A DNA stretch of 53,460 bases from a virus (IMGVR_UViG_3300001534_000001:1-53460), one strand, 5' to 3'. Shown: positions 1,492 through 14,838, counted from the first letter of the stretch. Notes: generated by a model from the letters alone, not told the origin. Numbers and translations are program-made.

Positions 1492-4400
1492 TTATTTATT
1501 TTCATGCTCTTTTTTTATTGTCGTTTCAATAGCATTCGCATTAGCTTTTATTGATTTAGCTTTCTTAGCATCATTTCCATGTGGCGACATTAATTGTGGA
1601 GCGGCAATATTCAATATTGATTTTAAAAACCTACCAGATTCATAGTCTTTCTGGTTGTAATCATCATCCAGCGATCCGCTTATTGGATTAGCCATTTCAA
1701 ACATGGGATTAATACCAAATAAACCCTGGGCAAGATTCTCCGGCATCTGCAATCCCGCAGGTGCTGTTTTTGACTTACGCAGGAATGATGGCTCTACCTG
1801 TCCCCTGAAGTTATGTATGCGGCTTAAATAAGGTGCATCTCCGGTAGTTCCGGTAAATGGTATGGAAACCAACGGGGAAGCCGTGTACTGGCTTAAATAG
1901 GTGTTTACAGCTTGTATTTCTGAAGATTCAATAACCTGGCCAATATTACCACCAAGTTTAGCAGTTTCATATCCTTTATATGCCCCAACAGCTTTTAACC
2001 CGCGATCTGCAACAATATTGGTAAACCCTATACTGAAATCATCCCAACTATTTGTGCGCTTGTTGTAATAAAACTTTTTAATGAAAGCATCTTTTTTCCA
2101 TTCTTCAGGAATGGGTACTTTTAACAGTTTTGCATGCGGATCGTCTGATGGCCACTTGCCGGTTACTTCTTTATGGATAAGCATCCAGTAGCCGATAAGC
2201 CCCAAAATACCACCTGTCATTATTTGCGCCAGCTTGTAATAAATAAACTTCCCGGCTTTTCCTGGATCATCAAATCCGCCGCCTCCTTTACTAAAAGGAT
2301 TATCAATTGGCATCTGTGTCATCATAAGCAAGTTCTTTAACCCAGCGCGATAATATGCCCTGGAGAATGTAGCAAACGGCGCAATCCCATTTTCTTTAAT
2401 AAACTTCTCTAACTTACCCTGCAATGACGATGTGTATTGTCCCATATCGGCAAGCATTTTAACGTACTGTTCAGGAGTGGCGTTCGGATTCATTGCCCGT
2501 ACCAGCCGAAACATTGTTACCCTGGCTTTCAGGTCTATCCCGTTCTTACCGTAAAGCAATGGAGAAAAGTCAAGAAATTTACCCTTGTTAAATACCTTTT
2601 TGAAATTACCGGCAAGCAGGTCCTTCCATGGTAAAGGAAATTGTGTCGGTTCAACTCCCATTGATTTTGCAAACTCATGGCTATAGGTATGTGTCCAGGT
2701 CTTTTCAGGAATTAAACCCATTGCAGCCATTTGCTGAACGTCCTGTGCAAATTCATCTGAAGATGGACTGGTAAATAAAACTTTACCCATGGCTCCGAAT
2801 ATTTTAACAATAGGGTTATTCAGCACTAATCCGGCTGCATGACCTAATATGCCATTCTGATAAGCCCATTCCTGCATATAAGGCATTGAGTTGATAATCC
2901 CCGATAATAAGCGGTATGAGTGACCTACGGCCTCCGCAGGGCCACCCAGCATAAAGTTAACCGTGGCGTTCAATATATGCCCGAACGCGGTATAATGGTC
3001 GTGATCTGAAATATCGCCCTCTATTATCGGTTTAATTTCCTGATACAGCCAATTAGGCACAAGCACATATCTTGTTGGTGTATGAATTATCTGGTTGTTT
3101 GTAATAATGGTCCTGGCATCCGCTACAGGTACTTTGGTAGCTTCGTAGGTTACGCCATTGATTGAAATATATTTGTCGCTGCTATCGCCGGAAACATGCG
3201 CTACTAACCCAGCATCATACAATGCCCTGATTGCGGCAGCTTTATTATTGGTTTTAAATGACGCTGATAGCTTCTTAGCCAGCGCTGATATTTCTGAACT
3301 ATACAAATCAGCGCTCCCTTTTGTAAAATGGTTATTTATATTGGCGGGCTCATTGTATTTTGTCTTTGCAGGCATAACAACCTTATGTGCATCCTTTCCA
3401 ACAGGTGACAATGGATAATAAGTATCAAGCGGCCCCAGCGCATCGCTGAATATACCCTCATTGGTAACGTGACTTTCCCTGAATGGTTTTTCGATTAATT
3501 GCTTGTATTGCTGTAAGGATTCCTGATATTTTGGATTAACAAACGATAAATTACCGGTACCATCCGGCTGCGTCATTTCATCAAACGTTTTCCCGTTGGA
3601 TAACTTACCAAAGAAAGAAACGTTGTCAGCTGCATTATCAAACATCTGGCCAAGGTAATCCCGCGCATCGTCATATTCCTGATTATCCAATAATGCCAGT
3701 ATGCTCTGCGCGGGGTTCTCGTCATCATCGTAGCCTTCCAGGTCTTTTATGATAGAATAAACTGCGGATGATTTGCCAGCGTCAAACAAGTCAGATAATT
3801 CAGTATCATCCATCGCCCTGATATCCCTTGCAAAGTTTTGCCACCGTTCCCGTGTACCGCGTAGCCTGCTTTCCATCAATGCTTCGCGCAATACTTTATA
3901 ACCATCTTCGCCGATCAGTTTATTTATTTTATCATTGGATAGTTTAATATTAACATTAGCTTCTGATTTTGAAGCAGCAAAATGAAGCATAGCGCGGAAT
4001 GCCGTCATATCGGTCATATCTTTGCCATAGAATTTAAGTTGCTCAAGGTTACGCACATGAACATCTTTTAACTTGCCCCATAGGCTATAATTCTTTTTAA
4101 CACCATCTGGTTCATCCGGGCTTTCTGATTCCGGCGCATCGATCAACTCCATTGGTATCTTTTCCTTTTTGGGTATCCGACGATTTGGCTCACCATCTTC
4201 CCCCCCGGTAGTTACGGGCGGAGTAACCGGAGGTTTTGGCGGAGGAATAGCGCCGCTTAAATCTGAACTCAACACACCATCCGGGTCCGCAGCCATTACT
4301 GCGGCCACTTCGATGTATTTATGCAATTGCTTTTTGCTTAGGCCAATCAAAGGCAATTTTGCAAATGTTTTTTCATCCGGCGAACTGGCTTTTATTTTTG

Positions 4401-7400
4401 ACTGCAATTCTATGGCCGCTTTCACCAGGTTGGCTTCAGTATCAGTATCGTTGGTATCCGGCGCAGTATGCCTTTGAGGAATAGTAGTTTTTGCCAGCAT
4501 TTCATTAATACTCTGCTCAAAGTCGCTTGCCTGTGCAGTATCGCCGCCCCTATCAATGATATACTTTACTGCTATTCTAACTGCCTTCTGTGTACTGTTG
4601 GTTGCTTTAACCACGTTCTTCAGTATATCAATTGCCCCGTTCCATACAGCCGGAGGTATTGGTACAAGCAACCCCATCATTTGACCACCAGGTTTAGCCT
4701 TTAGCTTATCCATAGCGTCCAGTATCGGCTTAACGTTGCTTTGGTCTAATATTTCATCAATGGCAGGAAGCCGCTCATTTTCGCTTTTTTCTTTTTCAAC
4801 CCCTTCTTCAATCATTAACCCTTTTAAAGTTTCAGACCGTACTTCAAGTTCTTTTAAATGGGTATCGTCGAATTTTTGATCAATATCATGACCAAGTTGC
4901 TCGATATTATTTGTGTTTTGGGATATAAGCGCTTTTGTCTTACCAGGCTTTTCAATAACATCTTCCAATTTTGAACGTAGTGACGATAACAAGCCAACAC
5001 CCTTACCACTCGGAACGGCTATACCTTTGCCTGTATAATAAGGATCTTTTATTCCGAGATCCAGTATGGTATATTCAAGTACCGAACCGCCTAATCCCTC
5101 ATGTAATGACAGTTGAACAGGGACACCGTTTATCTTTATTTCACCAGTGGAATATTTGGTAGGACTTTCCTCATACTTTTTATTCAGCCGGTCTAAATAA
5201 CCATCAACAGCAGCAGGGAACTTTTCGGTAGCTTCCGGCTGGCCACTAACCTCTACTTTCAATATTTCTCCATCAGGGAATGATTTTTCTACTTTGGCTG
5301 CATTAAACTCGTCCTTATTTAAAGCGGCTTTATTGCGGTTCAAATTAGACTGCGCTGATTGTAAGTCGCGTTTCGCCTGGATAACCCTGCCAAAGAAAAT
5401 ATCCTTTTTAGTTTTTTCTCTTTTTATGTTAGCGTCTGTTTTTATTTTTTCAATGGCATATTTGCTCCCGGATAGCCTGGCCATCATTTCATCAAAGGTC
5501 GGCACATCTTCGCCGGCCGCATCATCAATAACGCGCTCAACTGTCCCGGTAGTCATAAGTTGCTTGATGAACTTCTCTTTATTCATCAGAACATTATATG
5601 CCATCGCATCTGCGGTGCCTTCCATGCCGTTGTTTGAAACCTCAACTATTTTATTTTCATTACCAGGCCTTAAAATACGTCCCTCCCTCTGAACCATATC
5701 CGAAGGACGGTTGGGAACGTCAAGATGATGTTCGGCGACTAAGTGTTTTTGAGCATTTACACCTACTCCCATTTTTTCGGTACTCCCAAACACTACACGT
5801 ACCAACCCCTCGTTTACCGCTTCAAACAATGCTTGTTTACGTTCCTGTTTATCATATTTAGGGTCGGTAGCAATAGCTATCTCATTTTCAGGAATCCCGG
5901 CAGCGATTAACTTCTTCTTCATATCCTCAAAAAGATGAAACTGTTTTTTACCGTATGCCGGATTTAAAAACTCCTCATTTTCATCAAGATATTGCCGTTC
6001 GCCTGTCATGCTATTTTGACGATCTGAAAATATCATCTGCGTACCTTTAATAGCTTTGGTATCTGCGTGTTTCTTTACAATTACCTTAATAAGATTATTA
6101 ACCTTACTGTCGGGATGGTCCTGCGCCTCCGGGTTGTACATACGCGGATCAATACTGGCAACCTTAGCGTGCCCATAAAGCACCACCGGGATACTTCTGT
6201 TCCGGCCTAACCGTTTTTCTTGCGAAGATAGATTGCCCCAGGCTTTTAATTGCCTTACGATGCTATCTAAAATTTCCTTTACTGGCGGTGTAAGCGGGAT
6301 TATGTTTTTAGTCTTCTCGCCGTTTAACAATTTAGGAACAGAACCACTGTCGGTTATTTCCTTAACATCATCTTTTAAAACCACATGAGCAATCGACCTG
6401 AAGGCGGTCAATAGTTCAGGAGCATTCTTAAAGCTACGGAACCTGTTTACGTTTTTAAAAGAACCGGTAGCATTAAATTCAATATCATTTGCTATAACGC
6501 CAAATGTATTTACAAACTGGTCAAAATGCGTTATGCCTAATCGCTCAACTAATTCCGGCCTGATAAACCGCATCCATGTCCATACTTCGGCCATGGTATT
6601 GGTGATCGGGGTACCGGTGAAGAAGTTTACATTTTTACCGCCTGTCTTTTCCTGAATATGCCGGGTTTTAAGATAAAGCGATTGAGCCCTCTTTGATGCT
6701 GTCTGGTCAATTCCCTTTATGTTTTGTAGCGAAGTGGTTAGGCCAAGTTTTTTGTAGGCATGGCAATTTGATACTAAGATGCCAGCGGCGAAGTAATTAT
6801 GGTTGTCGGCAACTGTAAGGTCATAAACTCGGTCACTTGGCGAATTACTAAATCCAAATCCTGCGTCACTTGCTCGTTCGTAAACCTCAATACCTTCCAC
6901 CCTAACGCATTCAAAATTTCCGTTTTCCGCCTGTCCAAAAACTTCCATTTCTTCAACCTGTGTGTTTTCCCGTCTACCTCTATAGCTATCATCAGATCGG
7001 GCATACCAATATCCACCTTGTAATGATTTGGCAACGATGGGAATTGTCCCCATACAGGCCTCGTCGCTATCCCCCACTCCATATTGTCCTCCGGCAATCC
7101 CAATGCTTTGCATAGGGTAATTTGCTGCGGGGTTAAAGTCCCATTGCCTCCCCTTGACAAAAATGTTTTCCCCTGCATACTGGCTTTCATTTTTGCTACA
7201 GATTTCGGGTTGCTCATTGGATTGTTTAATTTCATTCTGGCTGACGAACTTGGACTTGGTATCCCCAAAGACTTTTTCCCCAACCAAATTCCGTGAAGTC
7301 TCTTTTGCTCTTGAATATGTGGCAAACTGTTCCGATACTTCGCTGCACAATGTCCCGAACAAAATCTTTTCGACCGTACTTTTACTGGATTTATTTTGCA

Positions 7401-10400
7401 CCATTCGCATATCGGCATTGGATTCAGATTTCTCCCTGTTGGATTGTCCTGTGTGACTTGGGTTGCTTTGTATAGAGACGCACATCTCGTGCTGCAAAAT
7501 ACATACTTCTCCTTTTTGACCGGGACTTTCTGACACCACCTGCAAAGTGGTAAATATAATTCTGTCGTTATTGGTGAGGTCTTTTGCTCGGATGTATCCA
7601 TTTTCGGTTAATATATGGTGGTTGGACGTACATACAAAAGTACCGTATTTATGCCTCACTTTCAACATTTTATTTACAATTGGTTTCCTCAGCCAATTGG
7701 TTATTCTTTTTGTCTCATACGTCCCCGATAATACATTATAGCTTAATACTTGCAAGTCTAATTTTTGCTCAACTATCAGCCCTATTGGTAACCAACCTTT
7801 GGTTGTTAAGACCGGGGTTTCGTAAGGGAAACACTCGTCTAAGATTAAGTTATCAATCCCCATGTCCTCAAAATGCAAGGCCGACCTATCAGTATGACGA
7901 TTTAGCAACCTTTCCATTTTAGCTTCTGTACTCAAAGCCTTTTTAGCCTCATTCTTTACATTTTTACCCTTCTTTTCAATATACTCACCCTTTGCGTTCA
8001 TTTTAAGCGCATCCGGATCATCCACCAGGCGCATCTCGTGATCAAGGTCACGTAGCTTGCTTTCGATAGCTTTTTTATCGGCGCCATTATCAGCCTCGTC
8101 GATGGATTTTTGAAGATTATCTATTTTTTCCTGAATATATGCCTTGCGCCGCTCCGGCTTATCAGGGATCATATCAAATTGAGAATGCGGCATGATGATA
8201 GCATCCCAATCCTGCGTAGAAATTTTCGCATAAAGTTTAGCCCTGTTCTCTGCGGAGAAATCTGCTTCGGATGGCGCCAGTATTTTAGCCGTAGGATACA
8301 TTCTGCGGAAACTGGTAACATATTGCCCCAGCGTTGCTTTCTGTACCACCACCATCGTCTTTTTAGCCAATCCAAGCCTTTTAGCTTCCATGGCCAGGAT
8401 GTGCTGCACGAAGCTCTTACCGAAGCCAACCTCTTGCGCTCCGAGCGTACTTTCAGCAAGCCCCCTGGCTACTGATCTCTTTTGCTCATCGTATAAACTG
8501 ATTGTTTTAGACTGCCCCGGATAATAATCAATATTAGGTGTCTGCCAATTTCGCTCAACAAAATTGTTGTAGATTTTATTATATATCGGTTCGGTAATAT
8601 CCTGTGCCTCTTTATTTGACCGCATGAAAGTCACAAACTCATCCTCGATCTGCGCTTGCCTTTCCCTTGCTTCTTCAGTTGCATGAGCATCAATACCACC
8701 GCCGTCTGCTTTTGGCATACTAACGGTTGTCTGAATGTTATTTAAAGCGTTTTCTAACAGCCGTACACCATCAACACCACCACCTGCATAGGTGGTTCTA
8801 TTCCTTGAATCATGCAGGCCATAACTTGAAGCAATATCCCATTTAGCAAGGGCCTCTTTATATTTTATTGTTGAATCAACTCCTAAAAGTGATTTAACAA
8901 AATCTTCATAAATAGCAGGGGGAACCCAGGTTGAACCAAGTGAATATTGAATAAGTGATGCTGGTATATCTTTTGGAATAACTTTTTCAAGTTCAGCTAC
9001 GTTCCTATTAAACTTTTCATCAGTTTCAACAGCCGCTTTAGCCTGATCCAGTTTGTCACGCACATAGCCAGACAAGTATTCTTCCGGGCTTTCCAATAAA
9101 CCTGTATTCGGATTTTCAAAGGCAAGGTTTTCGTTTATTAACGTATTTTTAACATCAGCTACCGGCTGACCTAACAGTTTTGAAATATAATTCAGGTCAA
9201 GGCCGTTTCTGTAATTAAATGAAATATTTATAGCATCCTTAATATTTTCTGCTGCATCCGGTTCGGTACGGGGAAAGTTTATCCGCTTTTTAAATAATGC
9301 TGATTTTTTTATTTCGGTAACTTTTTTACCACCTCCCTTACCATCATCTACAAATTTATCCTTTGCTTCCTCTAACGATTGAACCAAAGGATAGTCAACG
9401 TCATCTTCAAGAAACTTTATTGCCCTATTTTTATGCAGGGCTTTATTCTTTTCAACAAAAGCATCGTATTCTTTATTTAATTCTTTTCGGAGGGCCTCAA
9501 TATTAGCTTCTGCATTTACCGGAGATAATTCCTGCTTGATCAATTCAAGCAACGTGGTTTTAAGTGCGATATATGCTTTGGCTATTTTTACCTCGGCAGG
9601 CTTTTCATTATACTTAGCTACTCCCTCACCATCCCTCACCATATAAATCTTACCGCCCTTTTCAAACATGCTGCCCTCTTTTTTGTCAATGGCCTCTACA
9701 GTTTCCTCAACAGGCTTTTCAACCTGTGCTGATTGTTCCTGCTGCATAATATCAGATGGGAAAGACTTGATAGCTTTATTTAAGTTTGAGATAACGTTGT
9801 ACCCCGATGGCGCATGTAACGTGGCATCCTTACCTCCATATAAGCCGCCTGATCCAGCTTCATCGGCTGTCATCATCTTACCAAGCATATTTTCAGGATG
9901 CTGATGATAATATTCATTTACATTTATAGGTACCTGGTTGCCCTCTTTATCAAAATGCTTTTCTTCTATTGGATAGGTGTACCTAAACTCATTCTCCAGT
10001 GGATTAATTTTATTATTATCCCGTTTACGGAATACTACAATATCAGTCGTAACCTGTGTGCCTGCGTTCTCTGAAAATGCGTTATTTGGTAGCCTCACAG
10101 CCCCCACAAGCACGCTATTGCCACCGTCCGGGCTTGACATCCATTCGCGGAATTTTGGGTCGCCATCAAGCGTGCTTTTCGATGTGATAACCATTGCAAC
10201 ACCGCCAGGCTTTAACAACCGCATACTTTTACCGATAAAGTAATTGTGCATGTTGAATTTGGAGATGTCAGGATAGTTTTTATCGAATGGCGCTTTCTGT
10301 GCAAATGGCACATTACCGATAACAAGGTCCTGGCTATTGGGCTGCACGTTTGATTTTTCAAAACCTGACACGGTTATCTTAGCTTCCGGGTAAAGTTTTT

Positions 10401-13400
10401 TAAGCATACGCCCGGTGATACTGTCGAGCTCATAGCCGGTTAGCTTTGTGCTGTCACGCAGGTCTTTCGGCATCAGGCCAAAGAAGTTTCCTATACCGGC
10501 AGATGTTTCCAGCGTATTCCCACCTTTAAAGCCCAACTGCTTTGCCAGTTCCCACATTTTATTGATAACCTGGCGTTCGGTATAGTTCGCGTTGATAGTT
10601 GAGTTTTTAGCCGCATTCAATTCATCATTGGTAAACAATGAGCTAACCAATGATTTGCGCACTTCATCTATACCGATTGGATAACCTGAATTATTTAGCT
10701 TATTCTTTATCTCATTGGCAAGTTCGCTGAATGAGGAATAAGAAGGTGCGTTAATGGGCCCGTCTTTTGAAAAGTCCAAAATTTTATTATCCCACCGGTT
10801 AAGGCGCACCACTTCGCGCTTCCCGGCTATGGCCGCATTTACAGCCTGCTCATTGGAGTATTCACCGCCTTTAAGGTATTCAGCCAAGCCCCCCCACCCG
10901 ACAAATTGTGCCAGTACCTTCTTTTCTTCCGGGGATGGGTTACGGTCTTCACTTTCCAGTTTTTTAAGCAGGAAAATGGCATCCATGTTTTTGTTGAACT
11001 TTTCAATAGGGGAGCCTTCACCTATTTCATCATCCTGCCGGATATAGTGATTTTGATCTTCAGGCTTTAAACTACGCTTTTCAGTATTTTTTGGTACTCC
11101 TGATCCGGCATTTTTGGAACGTCCTCCCTGTCTGTCAGGTCCACTTCCGGTGCCAGCAGGGCTTCCGTTATCATCGCTTCCACCTGGTCGTACTTCAGGG
11201 ACGGTTTGTTTTCCATGATCTGCATTTCCATTTTCACCGCTGTTGTTGTCAGGTCGTCCAGGTACTTCTTCAGTTTGTTTTCCTGGTACAGCATTTGCAG
11301 CCTTTCCGGGTAATTGTCCCGCAGGAATTGAAGGTGTATTTCCTTCCACTCGCTGTCGTTCATTGTCTGTTCCATTTTCTTTCTTGGTTATATAATCCTC
11401 AAATTTTGCTTTACGTACTTCTTTGAGGTTGGTCATGGCCTCTATTTCTTCATCGGTAGCATCTGCGCTGGTGGCAAATGCTCCGTATGCGGCTTTTAAT
11501 CCATCAAAAACTTCGCCAGCTTTTTCACCGAGATCTTCGTACAGGTCTTTAACTATCTCTCCAAAGTCGTGTATGCCTATTTTAGCGTAGATGGCCAGTA
11601 GTTTGATACCTTTCTCAATGGTTTCTGGATTAATGCCGGACATGGCCTTATTGAAGGTGTCCATAAAGGCTTTCTTTGCCTTTTTAAGCTCATCTTCGTA
11701 TTGGGCACGCTTGGACTGCTTTTCGGACTTCGGTTCTTCTTTTGGCTGCTCCGGTTCAGGAGCCTTTTCATCGGTAGTTTTAAAATCATCCTCGCGTGGC
11801 TGTAATCCAACCGTTACGCCTTGCCGGGTCGGGATGATATTTACTTTTTCCTGACTGAATATGCCATTACCCTCATCTTTAGCGCGAACACCATGCTCAT
11901 TTTCGTACAAATCCTTTCCTGCGGCATTTGTACCGACATGGGTATAAGGTGTGCGGTCTTTACCAAGCGTAATAACAGAGGGCGATTCTTTTGATGGTTG
12001 CGGTAACCCGGCATTAGCCAGTTCTTTGTCAACTTCATCAATAGATGCGTCTATTTCATTAATGACCCCTGCTGACTTGGCACTTCCTCTTGTTGTAGCC
12101 TTTGCTTTTCCAACTGTAACTGTCGCTTTAGCGATAACAGCTTCAGTATTTTCGGTATCGGTGTTTTCACCTTCGGGTTTGATTGTTCCTCGTGGGGATT
12201 TAAGGCCAGATTCATAAGATTGATCTATTTTTGCCTGCAACTCTGCTGGCGTTAGTTTTGATAAATTACGTTTATATGCTTCAATAGCATCTTCTTTGGT
12301 TTTTCCTTTTCCTAAAGATAGTCCGGTAGAACCCTCTGTGACACCATATCCGTCAGTACCATGAAGTTTATGAGTAAAAACATCTAATTTATAGTTGTTT
12401 TTTAAATTCAATGGTTCACCCTCTACCTGAACATATTCAGGTTTTTCGGCAGTCCCCATGGAAACATAGTACGGATTTTCGGCTACTTTTTGGTCATTAC
12501 CTTGTACTTGCCCGGCTTCATTTTTGGCTGCACTTTCTCCGGCAGGGACTTCTGATCGGTTTTCGCTGCCCAATCCTTCGCCCATGGCTGATGATTCGCG
12601 AATGCCCACTTTTCCTGTGCTTTGCTCTGAAATGGCATTTGTTGGTTCCTCCTTATTTGTTAATGTATAAAAATATTCTTTAGCCCTGAACGGAACTTTC
12701 CAACCGCTTTCCCTGGCATCAAGCTGTAATTGTCCGTTCTTATCAATTTGCCTAATCGTAGCAATATCTTGGCCTGTTTGACTTTTTGCAGTGATTAATG
12801 CAATATTGTTCCCGTCTTTATCAACATGCTGATCAAATATTTTAGCTGTCCCCTTTTTTATTGGCTCTATCGATTGATCGGGAGATAAAAATTTATTAAC
12901 ATCAGTTGTTTCGGTTTCTGCAACTACCGGCTTATTTTCAACAGTTTTATTAACTGGCGCAATAGCTTTTCCCGCGCCTGCTGTTTCATCTGCCGGTTGT
13001 TGAGCAGATATCTCCGTATTTGTTTTGGCTTGTTCATTTTTAGGTATAGTTGCTTTGATTATTCTATCAGGATTAGCGGCCACAACCTCGTCCAGCTTTT
13101 CAGCGTTGGTTTGGGCTGGTGCCTGCTGCTGTTTAAACGCATCCAGTTCATTATCCAGGTCATCAAGCTGTGAAGCATCAACCGCTGGTGATGCAGCTAC
13201 AGGCGCAGGTGGATTAGGCTGTACTGATTCAGCAGGCGCAGCTATTTGAGCGGCTCGTTTCTTTTCCTGTTCTTTCTCGTAATCTTCAAGATCAGCCCTG
13301 TCCTTTGTTATCTCAATCGGTTCCTCGCCGTTCTGCTGCTTCCAAAACTTACCTTCCTTCTCAAAATAACGGAATGACTTATCTGTAGCCAATTCGGTCA

Positions 13401-14838
13401 ATTGATCATTAGCCTGCTCAATCTTAGCCGTTACCAGGTTCTTTAAACCCTCTACCTTTGGCTGCATTGCCGGATCAATACCTGATTCATTATTTGCAAT
13501 ACCTTCCTGTACACCTTCCAATTGCCGCCTACCCAATATCAAGCTAACTGCGGCATTGAATTTATTTGGCTGCAAACCCTTTGGTATTGAATTAACCACA
13601 TCTGCGATTTCATCGACCTTTCCTTGTGTGTGTAAAATATCAGTAGCGCTCCATCCTTTTTGTTTCCCAATATTACCTAACTGAACTTTTATTGCCTGAA
13701 CTGTTTGTGGTGAACCATCCTTTTGCAAAACATCTACCACCGGATTAAGATATGGCGACTTATCGTACAGCATACCATCCGTAGAGGCCGCGTGTAGCAA
13801 TGAAAACCCAGCGGCAGGGGTATTTATCATATTTAAGGCAAATTGCCCTAATGAGCCGTTAGCTGGTGTGCTGTCATTGTAAACTGGTGAGGAAATATCC
13901 TTTACAATTTCATCACCGGTAACACCTGGAAAAGGTGCCTTATTATTTAAAGCATTAACACCTGCCTTTAAAGCACTCCTGGCAAGATTAGCCCCGGCGA
14001 AGTCAAGCGCAATATTAGGATATGCTTTTAAATATCCCAAACCAACCTGTCCAAACTTTTGAGAAAAGGATAATGTTTTGGCAAGGGCCTGCTGGCTGTA
14101 ATATTGTGAAATATCATCAGCCGTAGCATTTGCCGGTAAATCAGCAAGTGATCTTGTAGCATCAGCGGCTAATGAAGCGGTAACCTCATTCACAAGCGGC
14201 TGTCCCCCTACTTTACTTAATATTGTGCCGGTTACTGATTTACCTAAAGCGTAGCTGATAAGGCCGCTCCCATAAATCATCAACCTGTCTGTGCCATTAT
14301 CAAACTTAACTCCCTGTGCTTTTAGGTTATCAACGGTTCTTGACATATTGCCAACGGCCTGTAACCCCATGATCTTTGCGCCCTGTGATTCACCCCCCAA
14401 TAGCATGGGTATCATTTTACCTACAGATGCGGCAGAACTATTATTTATAAAATCCTGATTATATCCAAGGTTAGCGCCTTGGTCATACTTTGCCAAAGCA
14501 TCCATTTCGCCCTGCTGTATGTTTTGTTCATGGCCCGGATCAATAAAGCCAGCCTTAACACCCAAATCACCAATATCTGAATGTACTTGTTTTAATGCGT
14601 GTAACCCTTCACCAACGGCGTTCAATACACCAGCGTCAAACGGAATAACAACGTTTCTTACATGATCTGAAAAAGAGGGCTCACCTGCGGCAACCCTATC
14701 CGGCTTTTGTTGCGGGATATTGCCTACATTCTTATCTGCGTTTAGAATATTATTAGCATTTGGATCATAGATAGGAATTAACCCTGATTTAGCATCCGAC
14801 TCTGATTGCTGTTTGGTGTAAACAGGAGGGGACGGCAT
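1492..14838 (-). CDS. Giant polyvalent virion cargo protein with DarB-like N6-adenine DNA methyltransferase and SNF2-type helicase; intein-containing
   Basis: 4448 aa. Pre-methylase motif NMDAIFLLKKLESEDRNPSPEEKKVLAQFVGWGGL; SAM-binding LETSAGIGNFFG; motif IV IGNVPF; Walker A-like QEVGFGKS; Walker B ILDE^CH split by an intein; TGTPITN; helicase C motifs GSTEKMGVGVNAQ and QREGRILRPGN. Follows ejection-protein-like genes. Confidence 0.85.
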   Translation of the reverse strand: MPSPPVYTKQQSESDAKSGLIPIYDPNANNILNADKNVGNIPQQKPDRVAAGEPSFSDHVRNVVIPFDAGVLNAVGEGLHALKQVHSDIGDLGVKAGFIDPGHEQNIQQGEMDALAKYDQGANLGYNQDFINNSSAASVGKMIPMLLGGESQGAKIMGLQAVGNMSRTVDNLKAQGVKFDNGTDRLMIYGSGLISYALGKSVTGTILSKVGGQPLVNEVTASLAADATRSLADLPANATADDISQYYSQQALAKTLSFSQKFGQVGLGYLKAYPNIALDFAGANLARSALKAGVNALNNKAPFPGVTGDEIVKDISSPVYNDSTPANGSLGQFALNMINTPAAGFSLLHAASTDGMLYDKSPYLNPVVDVLQKDGSPQTVQAIKVQLGNIGKQKGWSATDILHTQGKVDEIADVVNSIPKGLQPNKFNAAVSLILGRRQLEGVQEGIANNESGIDPAMQPKVEGLKNLVTAKIEQANDQLTELATDKSFRYFEKEGKFWKQQNGEEPIEITKDRADLEDYEKEQEKKRAAQIAAPAESVQPNPPAPVAASPAVDASQLDDLDNELDAFKQQQAPAQTNAEKLDEVVAANPDRIIKATIPKNEQAKTNTEISAQQPADETAGAGKAIAPVNKTVENKPVVAETETTDVNKFLSPDQSIEPIKKGTAKIFDQHVDKDGNNIALITAKSQTGQDIATIRQIDKNGQLQLDARESGWKVPFRAKEYFYTLTNKEEPTNAISEQSTGKVGIRESSAMGEGLGSENRSEVPAGESAAKNEAGQVQGNDQKVAENPYYVSMGTAEKPEYVQVEGEPLNLKNNYKLDVFTHKLHGTDGYGVTEGSTGLSLGKGKTKEDAIEAYKRNLSKLTPAELQAKIDQSYESGLKSPRGTIKPEGENTDTENTEAVIAKATVTVGKAKATTRGSAKSAGVINEIDASIDEVDKELANAGLPQPSKESPSVITLGKDRTPYTHVGTNAAGKDLYENEHGVRAKDEGNGIFSQEKVNIIPTRQGVTVGLQPREDDFKTTDEKAPEPEQPKEEPKSEKQSKRAQYEDELKKAKKAFMDTFNKAMSGINPETIEKGIKLLAIYAKIGIHDFGEIVKDLYEDLGEKAGEVFDGLKAAYGAFATSADATDEEIEAMTNLKEVRKAKFEDYITKKENGTDNERQRVEGNTPSIPAGQLPGKAANAVPGKQTEEVPGRPDNNSGENGNADHGKQTVPEVRPGGSDDNGSPAGTGSGPDRQGGRSKNAGSGVPKNTEKRSLKPEDQNHYIRQDDEIGEGSPIEKFNKNMDAIFLLKKLESEDRNPSPEEKKVLAQFVGWGGLAEYLKGGEYSNEQAVNAAIAGKREVVRLNRWDNKILDFSKDGPINAPSYSSFSELANEIKNKLNNSGYPIGIDEVRKSLVSSLFTNDELNAAKNSTINANYTERQVINKMWELAKQLGFKGGNTLETSAGIGNFFGLMPKDLRDSTKLTGYELDSITGRMLKKLYPEAKITVSGFEKSNVQPNSQDLVIGNVPFAQKAPFDKNYPDISKFNMHNYFIGKSMRLLKPGGVAMVITSKSTLDGDPKFREWMSSPDGGNSVLVGAVRLPNNAFSENAGTQVTTDIVVFRKRDNNKINPLENEFRYTYPIEEKHFDKEGNQVPINVNEYYHQHPENMLGKMMTADEAGSGGLYGGKDATLHAPSGYNVISNLNKAIKSFPSDIMQQEQSAQVEKPVEETVEAIDKKEGSMFEKGGKIYMVRDGEGVAKYNEKPAEVKIAKAYIALKTTLLELIKQELSPVNAEANIEALRKELNKEYDAFVEKNKALHKNRAIKFLEDDVDYPLVQSLEEAKDKFVDDGKGGGKKVTEIKKSALFKKRINFPRTEPDAAENIKDAINISFNYRNGLDLNYISKLLGQPVADVKNTLINENLAFENPNTGLLESPEEYLSGYVRDKLDQAKAAVETDEKFNRNVAELEKVIPKDIPASLIQYSLGSTWVPPAIYEDFVKSLLGVDSTIKYKEALAKWDIASSYGLHDSRNRTTYAGGGVDGVRLLENALNNIQTTVSMPKADGGGIDAHATEEARERQAQIEDEFVTFMRSNKEAQDITEPIYNKIYNNFVERNWQTPNIDYYPGQSKTISLYDEQKRSVARGLAESTLGAQEVGFGKSFVQHILAMEAKRLGLAKKTMVVVQKATLGQYVTSFRRMYPTAKILAPSEADFSAENRAKLYAKISTQDWDAIIMPHSQFDMIPDKPERRKAYIQEKIDNLQKSIDEADNGADKKAIESKLRDLDHEMRLVDDPDALKMNAKGEYIEKKGKNVKNEAKKALSTEAKMERLLNRHTDRSALHFEDMGIDNLILDECFPYETPVLTTKGWLPIGLIVEQKLDLQVLSYNVLSGTYETKRITNWLRKPIVNKMLKVRHKYGTFVCTSNHHILTENGYIRAKDLTNNDRIIFTTLQVVSESPGQKGEVCILQHEMCVSIQSNPSHTGQSNREKSESNADMRMVQNKSSKSTVEKILFGTLCSEVSEQFATYSRAKETSRNLVGEKVFGDTKSKFVSQNEIKQSNEQPEICSKNESQYAGENIFVKGRQWDFNPAANYPMQSIGIAGGQYGVGDSDEACMGTIPIVAKSLQGGYWYARSDDSYRGRRENTQVEEMEVFGQAENGNFECVRVEGIEVYERASDAGFGFSNSPSDRVYDLTVADNHNYFAAGILVSNCHAYKKLGLTTSLQNIKGIDQTASKRAQSLYLKTRHIQEKTGGKNVNFFTGTPITNTMAEVWTWMRFIRPELVERLGITHFDQFVNTFGVIANDIEFNATGSFKNVNRFRSFKNAPELLTAFRSIAHVVLKDDVKEITDSGSVPKLLNGEKTKNIIPLTPPVKEILDSIVRQLKAWGNLSSQEKRLGRNRSIPVVLYGHAKVASIDPRMYNPEAQDHPDSKVNNLIKVIVKKHADTKAIKGTQMIFSDRQNSMTGERQYLDENEEFLNPAYGKKQFHLFEDMKKKLIAAGIPENEIAIATDPKYDKQERKQALFEAVNEGLVRVVFGSTEKMGVGVNAQKHLVAEHHLDVPNRPSDMVQREGRILRPGNENKIVEVSNNGMEGTADAMAYNVLMNKEKFIKQLMTTGTVERVIDDAAGEDVPTFDEMMARLSGSKYAIEKIKTDANIKREKTKKDIFFGRVIQAKRDLQSAQSNLNRNKAALNKDEFNAAKVEKSFPDGEILKVEVSGQPEATEKFPAAVDGYLDRLNKKYEESPTKYSTGEIKINGVPVQLSLHEGLGGSVLEYTILDLGIKDPYYTGKGIAVPSGKGVGLLSSLRSKLEDVIEKPGKTKALISQNTNNIEQLGHDIDQKFDDTHLKELEVRSETLKGLMIEEGVEKEKSENERLPAIDEILDQSNVKPILDAMDKLKAKPGGQMMGLLVPIPPAVWNGAIDILKNVVKATNSTQKAVRIAVKYIIDRGGDTAQASDFEQSINEMLAKTTIPQRHTAPDTNDTDTEANLVKAAIELQSKIKASSPDEKTFAKLPLIGLSKKQLHKYIEVAAVMAADPDGVLSSDLSGAIPPPKPPVTPPVTTGGEDGEPNRRIPKKEKIPMELIDAPESESPDEPDGVKKNYSLWGKLKDVHVRNLEQLKFYGKDMTDMTAFRAMLHFAASKSEANVNIKLSNDKINKLIGEDGYKVLREALMESRLRGTRERWQNFARDIRAMDDTELSDLFDAGKSSAVYSIIKDLEGYDDDENPAQSILALLDNQEYDDARDYLGQMFDNAADNVSFFGKLSNGKTFDEMTQPDGTGNLSFVNPKYQESLQQYKQLIEKPFRESHVTNEGIFSDALGPLDTYYPLSPVGKDAHKVVMPAKTKYNEPANINNHFTKGSADLYSSEISALAKKLSASFKTNNKAAAIRALYDAGLVAHVSGDSSDKYISINGVTYEATKVPVADARTIITNNQIIHTPTRYVLVPNWLYQEIKPIIEGDISDHDHYTAFGHILNATVNFMLGGPAEAVGHSYRLLSGIINSMPYMQEWAYQNGILGHAAGLVLNNPIVKIFGAMGKVLFTSPSSDEFAQDVQQMAAMGLIPEKTWTHTYSHEFAKSMGVEPTQFPLPWKDLLAGNFKKVFNKGKFLDFSPLLYGKNGIDLKARVTMFRLVRAMNPNATPEQYVKMLADMGQYTSSLQGKLEKFIKENGIAPFATFSRAYYRAGLKNLLMMTQMPIDNPFSKGGGGFDDPGKAGKFIYYKLAQIMTGGILGLIGYWMLIHKEVTGKWPSDDPHAKLLKVPIPEEWKKDAFIKKFYYNKRTNSWDDFSIGFTNIVADRGLKAVGAYKGYETAKLGGNIGQVIESSEIQAVNTYLSQYTASPLVSIPFTGTTGDAPYLSRIHNFRGQVEPSFLRKSKTAPAGLQMPENLAQGLFGINPMFEMANPISGSLDDDYNQKDYESGRFLKSILNIAAPQLMSPHGNDAKKAKSIKANANAIETTIKKEHENK
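6766..7833 (-). mobile_element. Intein (356 aa) inserted in the helicase DExH motif
   Basis: Starts CFPYETPVLT (block A); block B CTSNHHILT; ends VYDLTVADNHNYFAAGILVSN followed by extein Cys. Removal restores LILDE-CHAYK. Penultimate residue is Ser, not His. Confidence 0.92.
6774..7601 (-). CDS. Out-of-frame endonuclease nested in the intein: two CxxC/FCSxxC Zn motifs plus DUF559/Vsr-like PD-(D/E)xK domain
   Basis: 275 aa in the +1 frame relative to the host ORF. CRWC..FCSTRC, CEWC..FCSGHC, then YKVDIGMPDLMIAIEVDGKTH...ILNALGWKVLRFTNEQV. Confidence 0.85.
   Translation of the reverse strand: MDTSEQKTSPITTELYLPLCRWCQKVPVKKEKYVFCSTRCASLYKATQVTQDNPTGRNLNPMPICEWCKINPVKVRSKRFCSGHCAAKYRNSLPHIQEQKRLHGIWLGKKSLGIPSPSSSARMKLNNPMSNPKSVAKMKASMQGKTFLSRGGNGTLTPQQITLCKALGLPEDNMEWGIATRPVWGQFPSLPNHYKVDIGMPDLMIAIEVDGKTHRLKKWKFLDRRKTEILNALGWKVLRFTNEQVTQDLDLVIRQVTEFMTLQLPTTIITSPLAS
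11067..11375 (-). CDS. Overprinted (+1 frame) TnpV-like small protein inside the giant gene
   Basis: 102 aa. WKEIHLQFLRDNYPERLQMLYQENKLKKYLDDLTTTA resembles the TnpV pattern (W...HL.YL.E..P..Y..L...G.L..YL). The host frame here is low-complexity G/P/N/R-rich. A-rich sequence precedes the ATG. Confidence 0.65.
   Translation of the reverse strand: MEQTMNDSEWKEIHLQFLRDNYPERLQMLYQENKLKKYLDDLTTTAVKMEMQIMENKPSLKYDQVEAMITEALLAPEVDLTDREDVPKMPDQEYQKILKSVV
12483..12638 (-). CDS. Overprinted (+1 frame) 51-aa basic peptide MPFQSKAQEKWAFANHQPWAKDWAAKTDQKSLPEKV...
   Basis: Manual translation. TAAGGAGG (complement of 12648-12655) lies 9 nt before the ATG. Resembles short phage proteins beginning MPFKSKAQ (my recognition, unverified). 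Confidence 0.65.
   Translation of the reverse strand: MPFQSKAQEKWAFANHQPWAKDWAAKTDQKSLPEKVQPKMKPGKYKVMTKK

Follow-up and report, generated by a model that had tools for sequence, protein, structure and literature searches.

An intein in a giant phage protein with a putative homing endonuclease gene overprinted in its +1 frame

The virus record IMGVR_UViG_3300001534_000001, a stretch of 53,460 bases with a CheckV completeness of 73% (hereafter the window), encodes a giant phage protein of 4448 amino acids (aa) that is interrupted by an intein of 356 aa. The DNA of this intein is open in two reading frames: the frame of the giant gene (the host frame) encodes the two splicing domains, and the +1 frame encodes a 275-aa protein with two zinc fingers and a nuclease domain predicted to be Vsr-like. 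The arrangement is very probably that of a mobile intein whose homing endonuclease gene has been overprinted in the +1 frame. A dual-coded element that expresses its nuclease apart from splicing had already been proposed from the sequence alone (the sequence-only reading). The fold predicted for the +1 product, the recurrence of the layout among the best-scoring relatives and a TAA in the +1 frame just ahead of the nuclease start codon all speak for the proposal, in which the nuclease would be made independently of splicing.

Two open frames in one intein

The host gene and the parts of the two overlapping frames are located in the window as follows.

1492..14838, minus strand: host gene (open reading frame (ORF) call) for the giant phage protein of 4448 aa, which combines an adenine methylase of the Eco57I type with a helicase module of the DEAH/SNF2 type
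6766..7833, minus strand: intein, 356 aa in the host frame, within helicase motif II; Cys1, block B T69-x-x-H72 and Asn356, then the extein Cys
7537..7833, minus strand: N-terminal splicing domain, intein residues 1-99; all beta strands in the AlphaFold2 (AF2) model made with alignment A4, with pLDDT (predicted local distance difference test) values of 92-98 for residues 1-90 and 82 for residues 91-100
6922..7536, minus strand: host-frame linker, intein residues ~100-304, stop-free; AF2 pLDDT 45-55 (residues 100-300)
6766..6921, minus strand: C-terminal splicing domain, intein residues ~305-356, blocks F and G; AF2 strands 307-319, 335-341, 346-349 and 352-355
6774..7601, minus strand: +1-frame ORF, 275 aa plus TAG, predicted Vsr-like/EDxHD (DUF559) homing endonuclease (Pfam, AF2, Foldseek)
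7599..7601, minus strand: nuclease ATG, spanning the Asn78/Gly79 codons of TENGY, just 3' of block B
7482..7544, minus strand: zinc finger 1, C20-x2-C23 ... C36-x3-C40, from the sequence; AF2 pLDDT ~90
7347..7409, minus strand: zinc finger 2, C65-x2-C68 ... C81-x3-C85; all four Cys at least 90% conserved in alignment A1
6813..7094, minus strand: catalytic domain, nuclease residues ~170-263, with E175, D197, E208, D210, H214, D223 and K226

In the host frame, the junctions read LILDE/CFPYETPV...AAGILVSN/CHAYKK, with the intein between the slashes, and block B reads T69-S-N-H72. Together with the C-terminal Asn356 and the extein Cys that follows it, this is the make-up of a class 1 Hint-type intein. 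The excised intein scores 40.7 bits against Pfam Intein_splicing (cutoff 35.8), and in an alignment of 66 related inteins (A4) C1 and N356 are invariant, H72 is at least 90% conserved, and Y337 and V354 are near-invariant. The AF2 model predicts both halves of the intein (residues 1-99 and 307-356) to be beta-rich with pLDDT above 90; within the C-terminal domain, the values lie at 89-96 and drop to 70 in the loop at 321-330. The splicing blocks are thus intact, as the sequence-only reading had it, and the intein would be expected to splice. For the part between the domains, that reading gave about 230 aa without a domain. The lack of a domain stands, with no family match from Pfam or PHROG in the host-frame middle of the intein and almost no secondary structure predicted by AF2, but the unstructured part shrinks to about 200 aa (residues 100-300) in the model.

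The +1 ORF starts 232 nucleotides (nt; 77x3+1) past the first intein codon and runs from ATG 7601 to TAG 6776-6774. Its stop codon ends 8 nt short of the splice junction, and its 3' end and stop codon cover the C-terminal splicing domain except for the last 8 nt. A start at the end of block B, a stop within 10 nt of the junction, and a zinc-finger plus DUF559/Vsr-like nuclease between them had all been read from the sequence correctly. On the +1 product, Pfam recovers DUF559 at residues 193-259 (E-value 1e-11, 45.1 bits, cutoff 20.6), and AF2, run with an alignment of 77 sequences (A1), gives a mean pLDDT of 87.9. The catalytic domain reaches 97-98; values under 50 are confined to the first 12 residues, and the 12 at the end, over blocks F and G, average ~70. 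When the model was compared with the PDB by Foldseek, the catalytic domain of I-Bth0305I (3r3p) came first, followed by a DUF559 protein (3hrl) and E. coli Vsr (1vsr). The 3r3p match occupied ranks 1-2, with a probability of 1.00, a template modelling (TM) score of 0.66-0.68 on the target and an E-value of 6.4e-3, and a PDB profile search with A1 gave 3hrl at 6.6e-13 and 3r3p at 0.015. The finger region displays weak profile similarity to FCS/MYM/YacG-type zinc fingers, and zinc finger 2 matched 2l8e, 2das and 2w0t at 0.013-0.03.

A search of 1.84 billion representative proteins identified 2457 relatives of the nuclease with E-values up to 0.001, of which 84 were at 1e-30 or below, and most are 140-430 aa long. 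The invariant positions of A1 include E175, D197, E208, D210, G211, H214, W235, R239 and N242, while D223 and K226, like the cysteines of zinc finger 2, are at least 90% conserved. The window nuclease has the conserved residue in all 11 invariant and 22 near-invariant columns. Judged by these residues and by the model, the +1 product fits a Vsr-like/EDxHD homing endonuclease with a composite E-D-x-H-D motif (E208, D210, H214, D223), and would as such cleave DNA and drive homing.

Both frames are stop-free across 828 nt, in keeping with the more than 800 nt noted by the sequence-only reading. Synonymous codons of the +1 ORF were shuffled 5000 times, preserving the +1 protein and its codon usage, and the host frame was open in 0 of 5000 shuffles (mean 12.3 stops, minimum 4). 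Nor was it ever open in 5000 shuffles of codon order (mean 14.3 stops). Applied to seven hand-checked relatives, the same shuffle gave 0 of 5000 in six and 13 of 5000 in the G+C-rich L006. Chance openness of the host frame is thereby ruled out. Three natural controls can be set beside the shuffles: the remaining same-strand frame of the window contains 26 stops across the overlap, the frame equivalent to the window's host frame carries 14-65 stops in five relatives with an in-frame nuclease, and a relative with a split intein (L098) has 15 stops in its host frame at the equivalent stretch. Shuffles and controls together argue that the host frame is held open by selection.

The sequence-only reading had also named what it feared, namely a sequencing or assembly artefact in which two compensating insertions or deletions (indels) would have displaced an ordinary nuclease domain from the frame of its intein. 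An in-frame endonuclease is the rule for inteins, and relatives of this kind exist here as well (L009-L011, L014, L015, L017 and L018). However, an off-frame would be expected to hold about 12 stops, and the host frame has none. The +1 frame, in turn, has 13 stops within the intein, all in the first 226 nt and ahead of the open +1 stretch, and then runs through blocks F and G of the splicing domain. Given these early stops, the TAA before the ATG and the read-through of blocks F and G, no pair of indels yields one protein with both splicing domains. The same offset is moreover found in 141 of the 160 best loci, in many samples and in finished phage genomes such as that of Vibrio phage CP-T1. 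Finally, contigs from a second sample of the same study span the entire intein region at an identity of at least 99%, and not one letter in them is inserted, deleted or changed; contigs of three runs were compared, of which X1 is possibly the source of the window and X3 covers 8 of 30 bins. The sequencing runs listed included no RNA run. The probability of an artefact is consequently negligible.

Layout and selection among relatives

Scans with the nuclease or its profile covered two collections, and the loci were classified by script. The viral set consists of the best 80 of 332 relatives, and the genome set of the best 80 of 270 in species-representative bacteria and archaea. In the viral set, the nuclease lies in +1 relative to a far longer open frame (617-1924 aa) at 79 of 80 loci, and the remaining locus is split. 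The genome set has 62 of 80 in +1, the remaining 18 being stand-alone (six full-length free-standing genes and 12 with the DUF559 core only). Overall, the +1 layout is thus found in 141 of the 160 best loci, and neither a +2 nor an antisense layout occurred in the best 80 viral or the best 80 genome loci. Both splicing-domain profiles were matched under a position filter in 78 of the 79 viral +1 loci; L023, in which both domains scored and the position filter failed, and L046, cut by the end of its contig, were omitted from later counts. Two loci of the genome set (L156 and L177) were classed as dual-coded (+1) without an [HSGKNQ]N[CST] junction; L177 matches weakly, and solely in the DUF559 core, and its two frames may be open together by chance.

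Nearly all of the inteins at these viral loci are located at ..DE/C...[HS]N/CH.. or just after DEAH/, which corresponds to the Walker B motif or helicase motif II. Pfam assigned the 67 unique hosts to SNF2 helicases (29-31), DEAD/ResIII helicases (13-29) and clamp-loader ATPases of the DNA polymerase III delta'/gamma type (10-17), and one related intein lies in a terminase (L008). One host cluster (L062, L071, L086, L090 and 13 others) comprises 17 dual-coded inteins in phage clamp-loader (DnaX-like) ATPases, at the Walker B motif DE/CH, a type of position also reported for the cyanobacterial dnaX intein. Five other giant ORFs (L021, L025, L029, L055 and L089) group with the window's host by their C-extein, and their inteins occupy two adjacent sites, either inside DE/xH or right after DEAH/, where the next residue is Ser or Cys. 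A Pfam LAGLIDADG_3 match was found in seven of the 67 N-extein segments of related hosts; the host ORFs of L001 (681-4787), L004 (208-4170) and L005 (840-4445) contain, upstream of the dual-coded intein, another one of the classical type, which lies near the P-loop and has its LAGLIDADG domain in frame. L002 agrees with L001 up to near the end of the nuclease (~3650-3665), where both of its frames end early; L002 is a variant with a deletion, or else the assemblies of the two samples differ.

Forty GenBank phage records matched, 37 of them Vibrio phages. In Vibrio phage CP-T1 (L180, NC_019457, 1570-4551), a cultured phage with a finished genome, helicase gp10 reads VTDE/CFPAG...VVHN/CHH and includes a dual-coded intein, whose +1 open frame of 250 aa (stop to stop) is unannotated, the helicase being the only annotation. 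The 30 records listed out of these 40 matches likewise all show only a host-gene annotation under the match.

Selection was compared between the frames by the ratio of nonsynonymous to synonymous substitution rates (dN/dS; Nei-Gojobori) in six related inteins, the only near-gapless set among the 72 unique ones, which give 15 non-independent pairs.

N-terminal splicing domain, before the overlap: host dN/dS 0.24, +1 none; mean differences at host codon positions 1/2/3 0.19/0.14/0.39
Overlap, linker part: host dN/dS 1.09, +1 dN/dS 0.25; host positions 1/2/3 0.39/0.27/0.24
Overlap with the C-terminal splicing domain: host dN/dS 1.42, +1 dN/dS 0.28; host positions 1/2/3 0.26/0.18/0.16

The fastest codon position changes from host position 3 before the overlap to host position 1, which is nuclease position 3, within it. 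This switch and the dN/dS values indicate that purifying selection moves to the +1 frame where the overlap begins. Homologues that keep both frames open, with purifying selection on the +1 frame, were what the sequence-only reading had looked to for its confirmation, and the 141 loci and the +1 dN/dS of 0.25-0.28 in the six relatives supply them at the level of the family.

It could still be argued that the host-frame linker is functional in its own right, as a disordered regulatory or spacer segment that tunes splicing, so that both frames are coding throughout. The linker is always open, short host-frame motifs recur in it (E..QS, R.RW, RVES.E), and the last ~150 nt of the overlap are functional in both frames, as nuclease C-terminus and as blocks F and G. 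However, the host-frame dN/dS of 1.09 and an amino-acid identity of 0.46 for the linker in the six relatives, against 0.61 in the nuclease frame, tell against such a function. The recurring motifs coincide with the most strongly conserved motifs of the nuclease (RMKLNNPM, RGGNG, GW.VLRF) and can be accounted for as a shadow of these. Furthermore, AF2 predicts no structure for the linker, and the split relative dispenses with it, all of which makes a functional linker very unlikely.

Start of the nuclease and candidate homing targets

In the window, a TAA is found in the +1 frame two codons upstream of the nuclease ATG. Among the 72 unique relatives, an ATG lies ahead of the first CxxC in 71, and it is no more than 10 codons from the upstream +1-frame stop in 46, with a gap of zero in seven. 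A Shine-Dalgarno-like motif is present 3-18 nt upstream in 31 of the 72, compared with a background frequency of 0.20, and several are full AGGAGG. The upstream TAA, the short gaps, the conserved ATG and the enrichment of Shine-Dalgarno-like motifs therefore favour internal initiation over frameshifting, and the nuclease would be made by independent initiation at ATG 7601 on the same mRNA.

Programmed +1 ribosomal frameshifting would instead fuse the nuclease to the N-extein and the N-terminal intein domain. Both frames do lie on one mRNA, the window ATG has neither a promoter nor a Shine-Dalgarno signal, and some relatives have 24-46 open +1 codons ahead of their first ATG. Yet only two +1 codons lie between TAA and ATG in the window, and the short gaps, the kept start codons and the Shine-Dalgarno enrichment of the relatives given above speak against frameshifting as well. 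So does L098, where the intein is split and the nuclease, with a start region like that of the others, forms an ORF by itself. Frameshifting has, in consequence, a very slim chance of being the route by which the nuclease is produced.

A further possibility is that the +1 ORF of this particular copy is an inactive relic, the intein persisting by vertical descent and the host frame remaining open because the giant protein is needed. Only the window's own protein among the 120 best-scoring homologues listed has the intein, no close relative was found that would allow selection on this copy to be measured, and mini-inteins with nuclease remnants exist (L012, described below). In contrast, the ORF is intact over 275 codons, retains the 11 invariant and 22 near-invariant residues and is modelled at a mean pLDDT of 87.9. 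An unselected frame would also carry stops, as does the remaining same-strand frame with its 26. A relic is thus unlikely, though the least remote of the explanations set against an active, overprinted nuclease gene.

Several observations count against the preferred explanation of an overprinted homing endonuclease gene. The window nuclease is at most 57% identical to any relative among the matches listed and sits on a long, unresolved branch of the tree, and no close relative of its intein was found, so the selection test holds for the family and not for this copy. The 80 viral and 80 genome loci are the best-scoring relatives rather than a random sample, and the check for indels relied on assembled contigs of one study rather than on raw reads. 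The Foldseek E-values are weak (6.4e-3) because the match spans only the ~100-residue catalytic domain. In the intein, the penultimate residue is Ser355 instead of the usual His; a VSN ending is common in related inteins. At the start of the nuclease, the window ATG lacks a Shine-Dalgarno-like motif and its leader is A/T-rich, promoter-like sites near it show no excess (5 vs 3.0 +/- 1.4 expected), and the RNA fold around it is not unusual (z -0.64). One terminator-like site was found, on the other strand. Bacteroidota make little use of Shine-Dalgarno pairing, and a host from this group would agree with the A/T-rich, motif-free leader.

Pfam found only the Eco57I-type methylase and Intein_splicing in the 4448-aa host protein. 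Its homologues are 2,700-6,000 aa long, appear under source names such as 'N12 class adenine-specific DNA methylase' or 'helicase-related', and several stem from Bacteroidota (Dysgonomonas, Prevotella, Bacteroidaceae). The host protein and its homologues presumably belong with the DarB-like 'polyvalent' methylase-helicase proteins that phages and conjugative elements encode. The homologues were obtained by protein search; when viral contigs were scanned with the C-extein's first 300 aa, no relative turned up. Among the matches listed, 119 of the 120 best homologues have a contiguous DE[A]H.[FY]K and no intein, the exception being the window's protein. The nearest shares 75% identity across the part of the C-extein that was searched, and its site reads LILDEAHDYKKLG. 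With 119 of 120 homologues uninterrupted, intein-less alleles exist and are candidate homing targets. The sequence-only reading had expected the intein-less allele to read DECH, which proved wrong, as the natural alleles read DEAH in these 119 homologues. DECH is what helicase motif II of the window would read after splicing (6763-6765 joined to 7834-7842), because the obligatory +1 Cys of the intein takes the place of the conserved Ala.

The element may accordingly be pictured as working in both frames at once. In the host frame, translation of the giant gene would yield a precursor in which the N-terminal domain (~99 aa) and the C-terminal domain (~50 aa) of the intein are joined by the ~200-aa unstructured linker, of which nothing would be required other than the absence of a stop codon. 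The intein would then excise itself and restore helicase motif II as DECH. In the +1 frame, the same DNA would provide the 275-aa enzyme, consisting of two zinc fingers, a helical linker and the Vsr-like/EDxHD catalytic domain. This enzyme may cut the intein-less DEAH alleles of the gene in co-infecting relatives, and recombinational repair would copy intein and nuclease into the cut alleles. As for the choice of frame, a possible reason is that stops in the host frame take the form NNT/AA, NNT/AG or NNT/GA in nuclease codons, so that the T of the stop meets the nuclease third position and every host-frame stop can be removed silently for the nuclease. By default, the host-equivalent frame is the richest in stops.

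Known systems, other states of the family and meaning

Out-of-frame nucleases have been described before in or near inteins. A preprint on the cyanobacterial dnaX intein describes an out-of-frame, LAGLIDADG-like nuclease in a '+2 ORF' at the Walker B site, proposes secondary invasion of a mini-intein as its origin, and credits Gorbalenya 1998 ('Non-canonical inteins') with the first proposal. Like the window, dnaX has a contiguous Walker B intein with a disordered in-frame middle and a folded hidden-frame nuclease, and, as in the relatives here, dN/dS is lower in the hidden than in the host frame. The two differ in that dnaX has a LAGLIDADG-like '+2 ORF', compared with zinc fingers and a Vsr-like/EDxHD domain in +1 here. 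The dnaX case also concerns one gene in one phylum, whereas the family here extends over phages and many bacterial and archaeal metagenome-assembled genomes with several ATPase host types. The hidden nuclease of the dnaX intein was not among the best 80 of the 270 genome loci, and no search was aimed at relating it to this family.

In actinophage inteins, Gosselin et al. (bioRxiv 10.1101/2025.01.02.630785) found EndoVII-like nucleases in frame 3, and LAGLIDADG and VSR-like ones on the antisense strand. By their account, the VSR-like type had otherwise been recorded only alongside split inteins, and they predict that inteins of this sort are under-annotated and commoner than recorded. As in the window, the splicing domains of these inteins are intact and the in-frame middle is unstructured, yet their VSR-like nuclease is antisense, and a same-strand +1 VSR-like nuclease is not among their four types in the accessible text. 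A 2022 bypass preprint mentions a VSR nuclease flanked by Hint domains. The caution of the sequence-only reading about novelty was thus justified, as out-of-frame intein nucleases are already in print (dnaX, actinophages). The kind is not new for other nuclease types, but this variant and its abundance appear to be undescribed: no description of a same-strand +1 Vsr-like/EDxHD nuclease in a contiguous intein, or of its abundance, was found in a survey whose scope mostly stopped short of subscription journals and supplements.

The same nuclease family occurs in the 'fractured genes' of Dassa et al. 2009 (PMC2677866), in which a free-standing Vsr-like gene lies between the halves of a split intein. 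The likeness to the family here includes the catalytic Asp/His/Asp with an invariant Glu, phage DNA-metabolism hosts and a 3' overlap of the nuclease with the C-intein. The mark of a fractured gene, stops within the intein, is absent in the window and present in L098. With 0 stops in its host frame, compared with 15 in L098, the window has a contiguous intein that should splice in cis. As far as the accessible text goes, no state of the 2009 model combines a contiguous intein with an out-of-frame nuclease, the combination found in the window. The prototype EDxHD enzyme, I-Bth0305I (Taylor et al. 2011, PMC3239194), in which H213 and D222 were mutated for inactivation, resembles the window nuclease in length (266 vs 275 aa), in its N-terminal DNA-binding region and C-terminal catalytic domain, and in the E-D-x-H-D motif. 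However, it belongs to a group I intron and has NUMOD-type motifs, in place of the intein overlap and CxxC...CxxxC zinc fingers found here. Finally, the ShiLan domain (Arsenault et al. 2025, PMC11855218) is a hidden out-of-frame HNH endonuclease in a mycobacteriophage methylase. It shares with the window a nuclease hidden in another frame, an insert open in the host frame and an open question as to the mode of translation. In contrast to the bona fide intein here, ShiLan is of the HNH type, has no splicing domains and is retained in the mature protein.

Other arrangements of the same nuclease, such as a homing cycle would be expected to produce, occur among the relatives. In the fractured gene of L098 (1723-3660), the helicase N-terminal half and the N-intein end at 2304, the nuclease ORF covers 2201-2941, and the C-intein with the C-terminal half follows from 2848, the 3' end of the nuclease overlapping the latter; both halves are in one frame and the nuclease is in +1. 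L012 (474-929) is a 152-aa mini-intein in a helicase, with a 46-aa +1 remnant of the nuclease C-terminus (43% identity, E-value 4e-6), and looks like a loss of the nuclease gene. The full-length free-standing relatives (L102, L110, L113, L120, L127 and L138) come from genomes of bacteria, among them Polaromonas, Massilia and Pontibacter, and have no splicing domains in their neighbourhood, apart from a weak remnant of the C-domain at L102.

A tree of the nucleases was made by quick search, with support from the Shimodaira-Hasegawa-like approximate likelihood ratio test (SH-aLRT) only. As 39 of its 81 inner branches are unresolved and long branches meet in it (L068 and L098), it was used for starred groupings only. 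In this tree, L102, L110 and L113 fall together with L021, L025 and L029, the inteins of giant proteins (SH-aLRT 97), L098 falls among the dual-coded nucleases in a weakly supported position, and the in-frame relatives form a separate branch (96). The hosts of the latter, assigned from translations, are head-morphogenesis-like and archaeal radical-SAM-like proteins. The overlap of GW.VLRF in the nuclease with RVE.IE in the intein strand is kept in dual-coded and split members alike, and this shared motif pair would point to a common ancestry of the fusion.

On balance, although by a modest degree of belief, a very large and hitherto unrecognised family of Vsr-like/EDxHD homing inteins, aimed at Walker B/DExH motifs of phage and bacterial ATPases, would have the overprinted +1 layout as its prevailing state. 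On this view, a single ancestral fusion may have fixed the C-terminus of the nuclease to the C-terminal domain of the intein in +1, after which the family may have reached helicases of the SNF2 and other types, clamp loaders, terminases and giant polyvalent proteins. Split-intein 'fractured genes', nuclease genes standing on their own and mini-inteins may have arisen from it repeatedly.

An intein of this design would fill a missing state in intein evolution, between free-standing genes, split-intein 'fractured genes' and classical in-frame inteins. If the dual-coding reading is true, translation of the nuclease would be decoupled from that of the host protein, and the element could set its own nuclease dose. 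About 830 nt would be read in two frames, of which one is selected for its protein and the other almost only for being stop-free, and ~150 nt of these would be functional in both, providing a natural system for measuring the constraint imposed by overprinting. Gene callers overlook the nuclease, and such inteins may be misread as decaying inteins or mini-inteins. The family would offer many natural examples of internal initiation inside a translated gene, and its EDxHD nucleases, with modular DNA-binding regions of the zinc-finger type, would form a large and so far unused resource.

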